40,586 bases of DNA from a plasmid: assembly GCF_055900595.2 (NCBI RefSeq), contig NZ_JBVWEU010000005.1; one strand, given 5' to 3'. The position numbers and the translations under genes were made by a program. The notes below the pieces were generated by a model that was not told the origin of the DNA, did not search any database, and saw only the letters and a list, made by a program, of their open reading frames with translations. Below, piece after piece: positions 20,123-33,975 of this stretch. How positions within the stretch are numbered: the stretch's first letter is position 1; every line of letters starts with the position of its first letter.

Positions 20123-20590
20123 TTAATCGATGGCCGCACGGAACTGCTCATATTCTTGATGCCCGCTGGCGTAATCAAACAGCTGATGATAATAAGCACT
20201 GCATCTTTCTGAAAATGGCAGATTAGAATTAGCAAGCTGGGCCAGCACAAAACTGGTTGCCACCATACCTGCAGCTTCTGCGCTTAACAAACCGTCAAAG
20301 TAATTACCCTGGACAGAAATACGGTAATGTTCACGGCTGTTTGGTGCCATAAAATAACCACCATTTGAAAGTTCATAAAAATCCCACTCACCACCATCGT
20401 AATGGGCTTCAATTTTATCCAGCGCACTACTTAAATATTGGCTTTTATTTTCAGGACTTAATTTACGCATCCACTTATAAGTGTGGTTTTCCACCAAACG
20501 CCAGTATTGGCCGAAGAATTTCGGCATAAACATCAGGCGTTCTTCATAATCTGTAAGTTTACGAGCAGTAACGATAACTTCATTATTCAT
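20123..20590 (-). CDS. klcA: KlcA/ArdB-family antirestriction protein
   Basis: 155 aa; position and size match KlcA downstream of oriV; putative OC in its promoter. Confidence 0.6.
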   Translation of the reverse strand: MNNEVIVTARKLTDYEERLMFMPKFFGQYWRLVENHTYKWMRKLSPENKSQYLSSALDKIEAHYDGGEWDFYELSNGGYFMAPNSREHYRISVQGNYFDGLLSAEAAGMVATSFVLAQLANSNLPFSERCSAYYHQLFDYASGHQEYEQFRAAID

Positions 20591-20643
20591 CGGAGTTCTC
20601 CGGTAATTGACCTGAGTGACTTACCCGGCCTTCACAAACATTA

Positions 20644-20660
20644 TAGGACATTTTGTCCTA
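20644..20660. promoter_or_regulatory. putative KorC-type operator TAGGACA-TTT-TGTCCTA
   Basis: Perfect 17-bp palindrome about 55 bp upstream of the klcA start. Confidence 0.55.
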
Positions 20661-20679
20661 TAATGTGAAGTGTTTTATT

Positions 20680-20886
20680 TTATTTCCCGACAAATTCTGG
20701 ATACAGCAACCACCCAATAACAATGATACATGCAATATCAAAAAATAGAGAACAGTATAAATAAATACCTTCTGCTTTAATAAATTTTGTGAAGTGTGAA
20801 TTAAACAAATCAGCACTTATATTCTCTTTGAGATCTTTATTCATTTTCTTGGCGTCAATCATCGCGTCAATTGACTTTATTAGCAA
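20680..20886 (-). CDS. small AT-rich hydrophobic ORF (possible membrane peptide)
   Basis: 68 aa, hydrophobic C-terminus, low GC; no convincing SD checked. Confidence 0.25.
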   Translation of the reverse strand: MLIKSIDAMIDAKKMNKDLKENISADLFNSHFTKFIKAEGIYLYCSLFFDIACIIVIGWLLYPEFVGK

Positions 20887-21366
20887 TCAAAATGGAACAT
20901 GGAGCCACCAATTTAGAACATTCGAAAAATGATCCAATTTCGCATAACGATTCTAAGACGATCCCTTTAAAGCCCTTCTTTCTGGCGTAAACCCTCCGGT
21001 TCTGTAGCGCATCAGTATTTTGAAGTGTGCTTGGTATCTCTAGCGAGTATCTATGCCCGGCAAAGGTACTTTGCCGAGAGCGAAGCGGCCTATGCTCGCG
21101 TAGCGAGTGAGTCATCTTTGGGGTGAAGACCGCTTGCGGTCGAGGGGCTTGCCCCTGGGGGGATGGGAGGCCGCTTGCGGCCGGGAGGGATTGAGAAGGG
21201 GGGTTTCCCCCCTTCGGGGGCGTCGTTAGACGCGGTTAAAAATAAGGTTAATTTTTTTGGTTAAAAGTGGTTAAAGGATCGGTTAAAAGATCGGTTAAAG
21301 ATCTGGTTAGAGGGGTGTGCAAAACTCAATTAAAGCCATGATTATTAAGGGGAAAAATATCCACAT

Positions 21367-21495
21367 GCGCCCCTCATATGTCATAAAGTAGCCCCTCAAG
21401 TGTCGTAATTCCGCCCCTCAAATATCATGATAGCGCCCTTCATATGTCATAATAGCGCCCCTCAAGTGTCACCTTTCCGCCCCTTAAATGTCGTA
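21367..21495. repeat. six 17-bp iterons at exact 22-bp spacing
   Basis: Copies of GCGCCCCTCAAGTGTCA-like sequence (reverse complement TGACACTTGAGGGGC, the RK2 iteron consensus) with CCCCTCA cores at 21370, 21392, 21414, 21436, 21458 and 21480. Confidence 0.85.
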
Positions 21496-21625
21496 TCTTT
21501 ACCGGGATATTAACAGACTTATCCACAAATTAAGGGGATAATTCTAACGTCTGGTTAAGCTCTATACGCCTAAACAAAATTTCGTGCGGGCTAAACTCGT
21601 CCTAAACAAAGAAGGGCGCAATAAA

Positions 21626-21673
21626 GCGCCCCTCAACTGTCATAAAAAAAATATGTGCCCCTCAAGTGTCACC
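21626..21673. repeat. two further iterons, the second overlapping the trfA stop codon
   Basis: gcgcccctcaactgtca (core 21629-21635) and gtgcccctcaagtgtca (core 21658-21664); the trfA stop (plus-strand tca at 21662-21664) sits inside the second core. Confidence 0.75.
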
Positions 21674-22540
21674 ATTCCTCGCTGCGGCATCGTTAGTTCG
21701 TTTGCAATGAATACGATCTTTATCTATCCAAGCACTATGAATTAACCCACTATCTTTAAGCTCAGCACATGCTTTATTAACCTGCTCTCGCCACTTTTTC
21801 AGGCGGTCGGATTCCGAGCCACACATCATCTTGAATGTATCTAATTTCATAGGATATGGCTCCCGGTGAGAACCAAAGTAATCAAAGAGGCGGCGAGCTG
21901 TAGGTGAAAGTTTACGGTATTTCTCCCACACAAACTTTGAATAGTGCTCACCTGCAAAAAGCAAAACCATCTCTTTATCAATGATGACTTCACATCTTGA
22001 CGACCGTTTCCCACGGTCAAGAACGCGAAAGCGACCAATCAATGAAACAGATTCCAGTTGACCGACACGCTCAGAAATAAATTGCATGGCTGTTGCCTGT
22101 AGGCGTGTTAGGCACTCCTCGGCCTTTTCTATATAACGACCATTATAAGACCAGCCTAGATCCTGGCAAAGTTCGTAAAACGTGAAGGTAATAGGTTCAC
22201 CCATTGGTTTCCTTTTGGCGTATTCAAGAACCTGCTGCCACACAAGTTCATCGTCATCAGCACGTAACTCAAGCCCGGTATAGGTGATCCGCACATCTTT
22301 ATTAATGTGGAAAATCTCTTTCTTCTGCAGTGCTTCACGGGGCTGACGTTTATTCTTGACAGTAAACAGAGCAGAACGAGCATAATCGTTAGGTAATGCC
22401 CGCATCGAATCCGGCCATGGTGCAATGTCAAATAGCGTCAGTTGCTTCTCTGTCTGCCCTTCATTCGCCATTCTGGAGCGCTGATCAAGCGCTGCCTTTT
22501 TTAGCTTTTCAAGTTCAGAATTATTATTGTCATTCTTCAT
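21662..22540 (-). CDS. trfA: TrfA replication initiator
   Basis: 292 aa; segment LSPTARRLFDYFGSHREPYP matches TrfA as I recall it; iterons immediately downstream. Confidence 0.85.
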   Translation of the reverse strand: MKNDNNNSELEKLKKAALDQRSRMANEGQTEKQLTLFDIAPWPDSMRALPNDYARSALFTVKNKRQPREALQKKEIFHINKDVRITYTGLELRADDDELVWQQVLEYAKRKPMGEPITFTFYELCQDLGWSYNGRYIEKAEECLTRLQATAMQFISERVGQLESVSLIGRFRVLDRGKRSSRCEVIIDKEMVLLFAGEHYSKFVWEKYRKLSPTARRLFDYFGSHREPYPMKLDTFKMMCGSESDRLKKWREQVNKACAELKDSGLIHSAWIDKDRIHCKRTNDAAARNGDT

Positions 22541-32252: not shown

Positions 32253-32426
32253 ATGAAATATATCATTCCTCTCATTCTGTCGGCGTTTTTTATCACTGCT
32301 TGCGACCCAAAAACCGATCCCAACCAGGTTGATTGCAATAAGTCAGTATCAAAGATGACTGACCAGGAAAAAACGCAATGTGGTAAATCAGGCGAATTTA
32401 CAAAAAGCCCCGAAAAGAAATGGTGA
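32253..32426 (+). CDS. trbK: TrbK-like small lipoprotein (candidate entry-exclusion protein); below the ORF-track size cutoff
   Basis: Hand-translated 57-aa ORF MKYIIPLILSAFFITACDPKTD... with lipobox FITAC, between trbJ and trbL as in RP4. Confidence 0.55.
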   Translation: MKYIIPLILSAFFITACDPKTDPNQVDCNKSVSKMTDQEKTQCGKSGEFTKSPEKKW

Positions 32427-32430
32427 CAGA

Positions 32431-33975
32431 ATGAAATTCAGGCATCTAATTTATCCTTGCTTATCTGTGTTGCTGATATTAATCAGCACACAGGCACAGG
32501 CTGCGCCATTAGATAGTGCTGGGTTACTTGATGATATCCTTAAGCGCTTTGCAAATGTTGCCAGCACCTGGGCTGGAACCATACAAAATTACGCGACCTG
32601 GATATTTTGGTCATTAGCGGTAATTTCAATGGTATGGACATTCGCAATGATGGCAATGCAGGGCGAAGGATTATCGGCAGCTCTTGCGGAAGTAGTTCGT
32701 TTTTTTGCTGTGTTAGGTTTTTTCTTCTATCTGCTAAAAAACGGCCCGGCAATATCGGTAGATATTCAGGATTCATTACGTCAACTCGCGGCTAATGCTT
32801 CTGGTTTATCAAAATCATTCTCGCCTTCGGGCATTGTAGATATAGGGTTTGATATCGTATCAAGAGTCGTTGACCAGTCTTCTATTTGGTCCCCGGCAGA
32901 CTCCACTGTCGGCTTGATTTTAGCCGGAGTTATTCTATGCGTATTAGCACTTGTCGGTGTGAATATGCTTCTTCTGCTGATTACCGGCTGGATTTTAAGT
33001 TACGGCGGTATTTTCTTACTCGGTTTTGGGGGGTCTCGTTGGACTTCCGATATTGCCATTACATACTTCAAAACAGTTCTAGGAATTGCCCTGCAGCTGT
33101 TCACAATGGTTCTAATTGTTGGTATTGGAAAATCCTTCATAGACCAGTATTACCAGGCAATGGGCGATGACGCAGTACAAATGAAATCTATGTTTGTAAT
33201 GCTTGTAGCCTCAATTGTTCTTTTGGTTCTTGTTAATAAAGTTCCTCCTATGGTTGGCAGTATTGTAGGCGGTGCTTCAATGCAAGGCATTGGTGGCTTT
33301 GGTGCCGGTGCAATTATTGGGGCTGCAGCTGCAGCAGGAGCCGCAATAGCAGCAGCTGGCGCTGCTGCGGCAGCAGGTGCTGCAAATGCTGCCGGAGGTG
33401 CATCAGCACTTAAAGCGGCATTTGAATCGGCACAAGCAGCGATGGCCGAAGAGTCTAGTACTGGTAGTAAAGGCGGTTCAGGTGGAGGATTTGGCAGTGG
33501 GGAGGATACCGGTTCTGTAGATACTTCTGGAGGACAACCATCAGGCGGTTCCGGTGGTTCGTCTGCAGAGAACAGTACAGGTAGTTCCAGTGGAGGAAGC
33601 CAGGGCTTTGCTTCATCATTCTCACGAGCTGGCCGCATGGCTTCGCATATGGCGAATAGTTTGGCTAACGGCCTGGCTGCACGCAATGCAGCCAAGCATG
33701 ACTCAAAAGTCAGAGCGGCAAGAGACATCATTGCACAAACTCCAGGTGGAAAGCTCGCTTCTCAAATCCGTTCGCAAACTGTTGAACGTCAATCGAACAA
33801 CACAGAAGAATCTTTTGGCTACGGGAGCATAACAACAAGTAACAAGTTCAACGGCGACAGTCTTGGAGGGGAGGAGCAAACAACGACTCAAACAGAAAAT
33901 ACTGGTTCTATAGATACACAAACATCACAAAGTGGTGATGAATACGAACAATTTAAAAACAAGTCAAAGTTCTGA
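32431..33975 (+). CDS. trbL: TrbL (VirB6-like) with Gly/Ala/Ser-rich C-terminal tail
   Basis: Track ORF 32380..33975; start moved to the internal ATG at 32431 (MKFRHLIYPCLSVLL..., signal-like) to avoid overlap with trbK. Multiple TM segments. Confidence 0.8.
   Translation: MKFRHLIYPCLSVLLILISTQAQAAPLDSAGLLDDILKRFANVASTWAGTIQNYATWIFWSLAVISMVWTFAMMAMQGEGLSAALAEVVRFFAVLGFFFYLLKNGPAISVDIQDSLRQLAANASGLSKSFSPSGIVDIGFDIVSRVVDQSSIWSPADSTVGLILAGVILCVLALVGVNMLLLLITGWILSYGGIFLLGFGGSRWTSDIAITYFKTVLGIALQLFTMVLIVGIGKSFIDQYYQAMGDDAVQMKSMFVMLVASIVLLVLVNKVPPMVGSIVGGASMQGIGGFGAGAIIGAAAAAGAAIAAAGAAAAAGAANAAGGASALKAAFESAQAAMAEESSTGSKGGSGGGFGSGEDTGSVDTSGGQPSGGSGGSSAENSTGSSSGGSQGFASSFSRAGRMASHMANSLANGLAARNAAKHDSKVRAARDIIAQTPGGKLASQIRSQTVERQSNNTEESFGYGSITTSNKFNGDSLGGEEQTTTQTENTGSIDTQTSQSGDEYEQFKNKSKF

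Follow-up and report, generated by a model that had tools for sequence, protein, structure and literature searches.

The question raised by this locus is what a block of short GC-rich palindromes does beside an AT-rich array of GGTTA repeats close to a plasmid initiator gene. The window, by which we mean the whole 40,586-nucleotide stretch of plasmid DNA that was analyzed (contig NZ_JBVWEU010000005.1), carries both elements (Table 1). We read the region as the distal half of an IncP-1-type oriV (vegetative replication origin), made up of a DNA unwinding element (DUE) and a hairpin cassette, and put the probability of this reading at about 0.8. Its parts differ in strength. Homology makes it highly probable that the locus is an origin with an unwinding element; the further proposal that the cassette is a signal working as single-stranded DNA (ssDNA) on its G-rich strand is tentative and is held with less than even confidence. 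An already described AT-rich/GC-rich half of an IncP-1 origin, in a lineage well represented in public databases, is an ordinary result. What matters more is that the "GC-rich region" proves to be a cassette of covarying hairpins, beyond mere composition, and that the minimal origin on which almost all RK2 biochemistry and many vectors are based excludes much of this cassette.

Positions 21058-21680 make up a full iteron-type origin of replication. RK2 oriV, taken from a laboratory vector (L002), was aligned with the window and 13 other origins. The origin of RK2/RP4 (IncP-1 alpha) has the same elements in the same order and orientation: a GC block, AT-rich repeats, a 64-bp spacer, TrfA iterons with a 22-bp period, and DnaA boxes. 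The AT-rich tandem 13-mers (TAAACnTTnTTTT) stand at a set distance from the iterons, 64 bp separating the last GGTTA from iteron 1 in the window and in RK2 alike, and the GC-rich region is distal to them. Iterons of about 17 bp resembling GCCCCTCAAGTGTCA occur in eight copies, six in tandem at 22-bp spacing and two near trfA. DnaA boxes lie beside the iterons at three sites, and the gene for the TrfA initiator adjoins. DnaA-box matches across the window are not above chance in number, so their position is the argument. An earlier sequence-only reading of this DNA had taken the region for the flank of an RK2-like oriV, and the base-by-base alignment with RK2, trfA, the eight iterons and the DnaA boxes bear this out.

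The AT-rich array consists of seven GGTTA units that bound six 13-mer-like elements. The units start at 21234, 21246, 21259, 21269, 21281, 21293 and 21305, that is, at intervals of 12, 13, 10, 12, 12 and 12 bp, and Tandem Repeats Finder reports a period of 12 with the consensus GGTTAAAAGATC. The array had been noticed before as at least five GGTTAAA-like repeats beginning at 21240; the repeats are real, but they begin at 21234, and five of the seven units read exactly GGTTAAA. These five lie on one strand within 66 bp, and the whole window has 13 on both strands versus 6.8 expected. Read on the minus strand, GGTTA is TAACC, the start of the RK2 13-mer, and the array would therefore be the DUE, an element already known. 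This had been one of the functions suggested from the sequence, and homology to the four RK2 13-mers, which extends to the 5'-TAAMC ends and the 64-bp distance, argues for it. The minus-strand elements read TAACCTTATTTTT, TAACCGATCTTTT and others. The RK2 unwinding element has four 13-mers (L, M1, M2 and R) with the consensus given above, every one of which is required for activity (PMC4081077). Scored against this consensus, the six window elements reach 5-9 of 11 positions and the four of RK2 7-11 of 11.

On the other side of the array from the iterons lies the GC block. All of the palindromes named in the sequence-only reading are present, displaced by one or two bases. Its near-identical "twins" GACCGCTTGCGGTC and GGCCGCTTGCGGCC are the hairpins H1 and H3, and GGGGGGTTTCCCCCC (21198-21212) is the core of the longer palindrome H4. 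It had overlooked H2 and H5 within the block and two palindromes upstream. The block is 64-66% G+C in a plasmid of 45% G+C and has a GC skew of +0.34 to +0.42. Nowhere else in the window are perfect hairpins so crowded, with nine in 110 bp (overlapping calls inside H4 counted) versus about 4 per kb overall. When the single strands were folded as DNA, both beat all 200 shuffles (z = -3.85 and -4.35).

Table 1. Features of the replication origin and its initiator gene, in window coordinates.
Feature	Position	Strand	Basis
Upstream perfect hairpin, 8-bp stem, GTA loop	21058-21076	+	hairpin scan
H0, terminator-like: CTCGC-GTA-GCGAG (21095-21107) and T-rich tail, directly before GC block	21093-21119	+	terminator scan
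GC-rich hairpin cassette (GGGGTGA ... CCTTCGG), 98 bp, G-rich on + strand	21120-21217	+	conservation
H1, first "twin", GACCGC-TT-GCGGTC = GACCGCTTGCGGTC	21128-21141	+	motif and hairpin scan
H2, A-GGGGC-TT-GCCCC-T, (A)GGGGCTTGCCCC(T); stem almost invariant, loop variable	21143-21156	+	alignment
G-tract linker GGGGGGATGGGA; CTG 21155-21157 overlaps H2 end	21157-21168	+	BLAST-derived alignment
H3, second "twin", GGCCGC-TT-GCGGCC = GGCCGCTTGCGGCC	21169-21182	+	motif and hairpin scan
Conserved linker GGGAGGGATTGA (GGG-W-GGG)	21183-21194	+	alignment
H4, GAAGGGGGG-TTT-CCCCCCTTC = GAAGGGGGGTTTCCCCCCTTC; 9-bp invariant stem, loop variable	21195-21215	+	hairpin scan, alignment
H5, GCGTC-GTTA-GACGC = GCGTCGTTAGACGC, abuts first GGTTA unit	21220-21233	+	hairpin scan, fold
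Putative DNA unwinding element, seven GGTTA units with six 13-mer-like elements between them	21234-21309	+	homology to RK2 L/M1/M2/R
Three GATC (Dam) sites, spaced 12 and 11 bp, in last three repeat units	21277, 21289, 21300 (21277-21303)	.	densest GATC cluster of the window
DnaA-box match TTTTGCACA, 7 bp beyond last GGTTA unit	21316-21324	-	relatives have TTTTCCACA here
DnaA-box-like ATATCCACA abutting iteron 1, 8/9 to TTATCCACA	21357-21365	+	sequence match
Six TrfA-type iterons, GCCCCTCAWRTGTCA core, 22-bp period	21367-21497	+	tandem repeat detection
Perfect DnaA box TTATCCACA	21519-21527	+	sequence match
Two more iterons	21626-21646 and 21655-21675	+	repeat detection
trfA, 292 aa, short TrfA2-type	21662-22540	-	Pfam TrfA PF07042, E = 1.2e-144; named trfA in near-identical plasmids

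The motifs had been thought to look lineage-specific, which they are not. All of the palindromes, and the GGTTA array with them, have counterparts at the corresponding positions in RK2, in pI2 (typed in PLSDB as IncP only), in pAKD34 and in others. The RK2 block reads GGGGTGA-GGCCGTTCGCGGCC-GA-GGGGCGCAGCCCC-TGGGGGGATGGGAG-GCCCGCGTTAGCGGGC-CGGGAGGGTTCGA-GAAGGGGGGGCACCCCCCTTC and, after two more small hairpins, GGTTAAAAACAAGGTTTATAAATATTGGTTTAAAAGCAGGTTAAAAGACAGGTTAGCGG. RK2/RP4 thus shares the unit ends (GGTTA, or TAACC on the other strand; 5'-TAAMC) and all four block hairpins. The loops of H1 and H3 and two stem positions differ in the window by compensatory changes, and one small hairpin (H5) stands between H4 and the array where RK2 has two. 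Identity between the window and RK2 is 83% in the GC block (97-101 bp), 75% in the iteron array, 60% in the AT-rich array and 45% in the spacer. By this measure no part of the origin is better conserved than the GC block, which surpasses the initiator-binding sites, and the hairpins and AT-rich repeats are evidently inherited from a common ancestor of these plasmids.

A sensitive BLAST search with 21100-21330 matched 654 plasmid records. Hundreds of these are classical IncP-1 plasmids, whose hosts include Comamonas, Delftia, Cupriavidus and Pseudomonas, and in them it is the GC block that matches at 80-90%. In this BLAST-derived set the linker GGGGGGATGGGA is constant except for the length of its G-run (5-6 G). 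Genomes and metagenomes were scanned for two linker motifs of the block with an unconstrained gap between them; 91 loci were recovered, and these and the plasmid loci comprise 51 distinct block sequences. In every case the AT-rich element stands between the cassette and the iterons, and the orientation of the cassette does not change. The cassette extends to replicons that are related to IncP-1 neither in their iterons nor in their AT-rich repeats, such as pDCB1 from Diaphorobacter (MOBF, with a "replication initiator protein A", TACGCCGATAGACGAG iterons and CGTTAAA repeats) and locus L062 (GCGTCATTTGTCAC iterons).

Two observations concern the block outside typical IncP-1 origins. About 105 bp of it (query 14-118, 81.8% identity), in the RK2 version, is present in many Salmonella and E. 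coli plasmids of 105-350 kb, for example NZ_CP024468.1 and JF274991.1, where it is probably a relic of an RK2-type oriV carried with a resistance region; oriV is reportedly mentioned for plasmids of this kind in PMC3817090. Four loci (L009, L019, L020 and L059) have an insertion of about 40 bp between H2 and the G-tract linker, with a perfect hairpin of its own (CCAGGCGC-GT-GCGCCTGG); the cassette seems to grow by added hairpin modules.

The main rival explanation is that the block is a passive GC clamp, a stable duplex that confines TrfA-induced melting to the 13-mers, and that its palindromes have no function of their own. GC-rich segments beside AT-rich segments are common in iteron origins, and the RSF1010 origin has a similar pairing. 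In PromA a 27-bp AT-rich region adjoins a 29-bp GC-rich region (PMC9499019). The composition of the block relative to its plasmid agrees with such a role, as does the RK2 minimal origin, which retains only the proximal part of the block, H4 and downstream. A clamp needs composition only, however, and it leaves unexplained why the block is 83% identical to that of RK2 where the DUE and spacer have diverged to 45-60%. Nor does it account for the compensatory stem pairs, for the enrichment of stable loops on one strand, or for the strong G/C asymmetry between the strands. We consider it unlikely.

The compensatory changes are extensive. H1 occurs in 18 distinct versions in relatives, all but four with full complementarity, and H3 in 16 distinct versions with compensatory changes in six of its seven pairs. 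Stem variants of the two include GGCCGC/GCGGCC, GAGGCC/GGCCTC, GACGCGC/GCGCGTC, GGGCGGC/GCCGCCC, GTCCG/CGGAC and GCCCGC/GCGGGC. H2 and H4 keep their stems and vary in the loop only; H5 appears in relatives as GCGTC-GTA-GACGC, GCGTC-TAT-GACGC and the compensated GCGGC-GTTA-GCCGC. In a 24-sequence alignment 93.9% of the cells are paired, versus 82.9% in shuffles. Ten of 19 pairs have changed on both sides, a number reached by none of 500 shuffles, and the covariation score is 0.247 versus 0.085 shuffled and 0.02-0.05 with the partners slid. The result is not circular, since the search pattern left H1, H2 and H3 free. The pattern of covariation argues against sequence-specific duplex sites as well as against a mere GC clamp, and favors intrastrand pairing.

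Such duplex sites, bound by host or plasmid factors, were what the sequence-only reading had offered for the palindromes, and in a stricter form they would be lineage-specific and bound by a protein dimer of plasmid or host origin. Operators of dimeric proteins typically have dyad symmetry, and a palindrome resembling a KorC operator lies 500 bp away in the window. The motifs are shared between lineages, though, and the cassette is common to replicons with differing initiators and hosts. The twin stems vary freely while complementarity is kept: H3 stems of GGCCGC, GAGGCC, GACGCGC, GGGCGGC and GGACGC are all complementary, which is unlike the evolution of a sequence-specific site. We do not favor this explanation and regard it as very improbable.

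The loops point to a particular strand. Loops of the types cGNAg, cGNNAg or gCNNGc on the plus strand are found in 27 of 45 distinct H1-H3 hairpins, versus 2-6% of random loops, and these loop classes are said, by Yoshizawa in 1997 and Nakano in 2002, to form exceptionally stable DNA hairpins. The plus strand is indicated because cGNAg occurs 15 times and its complement cTNCg once. The G-tracts of the linkers are on the same strand as the favored loops. Given the loop bias, the G-tracts, the terminator-like H0 upstream, and the results for promoters and Rfam described below, the cassette is tentatively read as acting in ssDNA on the plus strand.

It could instead encode a small structured RNA, as four covarying hairpins with CUUG and UUCG loops, which are stable in RNA too, might suggest. 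The cGNAg triloop is a DNA motif, however, and not an RNA motif. No promoter-like site was seen upstream, and H0 stands directly before the block. A scan of 20600-21800 against Rfam 15 at a permissive threshold returned sub-threshold chance matches only, the best with E = 0.059 and 21.6 bits versus a gathering threshold of 70. A structured RNA is hardly credible here. The long-range pairing of H1 with H3 in the minimum-energy fold of the plus strand was tried as a conserved switch and rejected, as it holds in only about 14 of 51 lineages. A coding reading of the block was likewise rejected. The adjoining open reading frames (ORFs), at 20867-21115 and 20680-20886 on the minus strand, have no Pfam match, and hairpin loop lengths differ between lineages by non-multiples of three. 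The runner-up cluster of short hairpins in the window, at 33280-33400, is an artefact of GCAGC/GCTGC codon repeats in an Ala/Gly-rich stretch of a 531-aa ORF (32380-33975).

H0 also bears on the possibility that the block insulates the origin from transcription, its hairpins being stacked terminators that keep out the transcripts of neighboring genes. Other lineages have an equivalent hairpin and T-run at the H0 position (GCGCC-GTA-GGCGC TCCATTTTT), which in other IncP-1 plasmids follows convergent toxin-antitoxin genes. Yet the terminator scan, which looked for a hairpin with a T-run, flagged none of H1-H5 on either strand and only H0 qualifies; H1-H4 are without a T-run on both strands. H0 alone would suffice as an insulator, and the closest gene on the left, klcA, points away from the origin. 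As an account of H1-H4 the insulator is improbable.

The G-rich strand, once unwound, might instead form a G-quadruplex from the free G-tracts around H3 (GGGGGG-AT-GGG-[H3]-GGG-A-GGG), with the hairpin in a long loop. Four tracts of at least three G are in the right order and are constant in the BLAST-derived relatives, where the nucleotide between the last two varies (A, T, C or G). This is an argument from pattern only, in which part of the invariance is due to the search pattern, and the flanking non-G positions (AT, GAG, ATYGAGAA), which a quadruplex does not require, are equally conserved. We find it quite improbable, if a little less so than the duplex binding sites.

How hairpins on the plus strand might act can be outlined from RK2. 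TrfA binds just one of the two melted RK2 strands (PMC4081077), the A-rich one, where the replisome assembles (PMC4980987). By extension from these experiments, TrfA on the neighboring iterons would melt 21234-21309 and then bind the A-rich strand, here the plus strand, as the site of replisome assembly, with DnaB loaded on the opposite strand. The cassette (21120-21233, four to five hairpins) would act as ssDNA on the G-rich plus strand, the 5' continuation of the TrfA-bound DUE strand and presumably the first template copied by the nascent strand. From strand polarity, synthesis on this template would run from the DUE into the cassette. As the helicase unwinds the block, hairpins could form and provide an accessory signal, by holding the bubble open, by excluding single-strand-binding protein (SSB), or by offering a structured landing or priming site. 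That the cassette is a conserved strand-specific ssDNA signal common to TrfA- and RPA-type iteron replicons across Proteobacteria is doubtful. If it were so, the cassette would be a priming or replisome-loading pad, or a bubble lock, on the strand that runs on from the TrfA-bound strand of the DUE. Its location mostly outside a 393-bp minimal oriV would then explain forty years of oversight in RK2 work, and its role might show only in hosts other than E. coli, in copy-number fidelity, or in establishment after transfer. A full-text literature search found nothing on the function of the RK2 GC-rich region, though the original RK2 origin papers were beyond its reach and may describe the hairpins.

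Stable hairpins exposed as ssDNA beyond an unwinding element, on a defined strand, are likewise found in RSF1010 ssiA/ssiB, phage G4 oric and the R1 "G site". The folds and the covariation suggest that the cassette, too, has stable hairpins on the exposed strand. In 47 of 51 blocks H2 has a CTG at its 3' edge, and this CTG overlaps the H2 stem; the CTG of phage G4, unlike this one, lies a few nucleotides past the hairpin. Local BLAST against the annotated oric of phage G4 gave one 10-nt match, GGACGGCGAA, which is not significant (E = 0.52) and gives no evidence of homology between the cassette and G4 oric. The comparison might illustrate a possible way of working and does not make the cassette a member of these families. 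The commonest H3 outside IncP-1, GGACGGCGAAGCCGGCC (L008, L016, L024 and others), agrees with stem-loop I of the G4 complementary-strand origin, GGACGGCGAAAGCCGCCGTCC (L107, 373-393), in its own first 10 nt and in the core of a GCGAA(A)GC mini-hairpin, a resemblance with the same insignificant E value.

Several points weigh against a functional reading of the cassette. Cutting the RK2 origin with HpaII in silico releases a piece of exactly 393 bp, bounded on one side by the CCGG where H3 has its 3' end and on the other by a CCGG past the DnaA boxes. It holds H4, the 13-mers, five iterons and the DnaA boxes, and is without H1-H3 and the G-tract linker. We take this fragment to be the classical minimal oriV of RK2, reportedly a 393-bp HpaII fragment described by Stalker, Thomas and Helinski in 1981. 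Since that origin is without them, replication in E. coli does not require H1, H2, the G-tract linker or H3. Whatever role H1-H3 may have is then auxiliary, host-dependent or non-replicative, and they are probably accessory. The sequence-only reading had held that its proposal would fall if deletion of the motifs left replication or copy number unaffected; with this minimal origin, the twins are at most accessory by that test. They lie in the best-conserved part of the origin and yet outside the RK2 minimal oriV, a mismatch that stands. The invariance of the linkers in loci L016-L106 is a product of the search pattern, and as evidence it rests on the BLAST-derived set only. Compensatory changes in palindromes can stem from template-switch "quasipalindrome correction" in the absence of structural selection, and purine-rich loops could merely mirror a strand-wide richness in G and A. 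The mechanistic steps are all borrowed from RK2, so that they hold by analogy, and the direction of the fork through the cassette is an inference from strand polarity. Finally, about 0.3 clusters of three GATC in 24 bp, like the one in the array, would be expected by chance, as estimated from counts.

The plasmid itself belongs to a described group. Its matches indicate that the window is an essentially complete 40.6-kb IncP/P-1 clade II plasmid of Enterobacteriaceae. Over 10 kb it shares 99.6% identity with conjugative MOBP/MPF_T plasmids of 40-46 kb from E. coli and Klebsiella, and one near-identical relative has 40,616 bp, so the window is approximately the whole plasmid. A near-identical record has the IncP-1 backbone order of kleE, a regulator at the korC position, a hypothetical protein (klcB by name in other relatives), a klcA-like antirestriction gene, oriV, trfA, ssb and trbB. 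Among the plasmid matches are the clade references CP033354 and CP035638, which Hayakawa et al. 2022 (PMC9499019) assigned to IncP/P-1 clade II. Clade II plasmids have a low G+C content and TrfA2 only; their ssb-trfA-oriV mini-replicons (pDS1, pMNCG080-1 and pMNCG082-1) replicate in E. coli and not in Pseudomonas putida, and the resistance genes mcr-1, blaKPC and blaIMP have been reported on clade II plasmids in Enterobacteriaceae (PMC9499019). With its 45% G+C, narrow host range and short TrfA only, the plasmid differs from RK2/RP4.

Differences from RK2 within the origin are concrete candidates for the difference in host range of clade II, namely the longer unwinding array, the GATC sites and the extra DnaA-box matches. 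The array has six 13-mer-like elements in place of four (six intervals and 71 bp versus four and 50 bp) and three GATC. The lengthened array is common in clade II, and the GATC sites are in a part of clade II only: most close relatives have them, whereas RK2 and the other origins of clade I do not, nor does a sublineage of clade II whose iterons are TACCTCAAATGTCA. By itself the GATC cluster is not statistically compelling and is a modest sublineage trait. The 13-mers of E. coli oriC (GATCTnTTnTTTT) and the GATC repeats of the P1 origin are likewise AT-rich tandem repeats of about one turn with GATC beside initiator sites, and both origins are linked to Dam and SeqA. The units of the window for this comparison, on the minus strand, read GATCTTTTAACCG and GATCTTTAACCGA; there is no sequence homology to oriC or P1 past GATCTTT, and the initiator that binds the single strand here would be TrfA and not DnaA. 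By analogy to these origins, GATC in the last three units would probably make the unwinding of the origin in enteric hosts responsive to Dam methylation and to SeqA.

The 64-bp spacer has a DnaA-box match on each side, where close relatives have TTTTCCACA and ATCCACA. RK2 differs in having no DnaA box at the position adjoining the 13-mers. These matches may have a bearing on why the host range of clade II is narrow.

Three further observations concern the surroundings of the origin. The palindrome ACATTATAGGACATTTTGTCCTATAATGT at 20638-20669, with a 13-bp stem, overlaps a strong promoter-like site on the minus strand (TTCACA-18-TATAAT), ahead of the klcA-like antirestriction gene (20123-20590). 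The core of the palindrome, TAGGACATTTTGTCCTA, is similar to the KorC operator of RK2, TAGGGCATAATGCCCTA. The window has six tandem iterons where the otherwise near-identical L001 (NZ_CP062878.1) has seven, one 22-bp iteron fewer at window position 21411, and such a polymorphism in iteron number between 99.5%-identical plasmids could shift copy-number control. A terminator-like hairpin at 21611-21634 on the minus strand, directly downstream of trfA, overlaps iteron 7, so that TrfA binding at this iteron and termination of the trfA transcript could interfere with each other.

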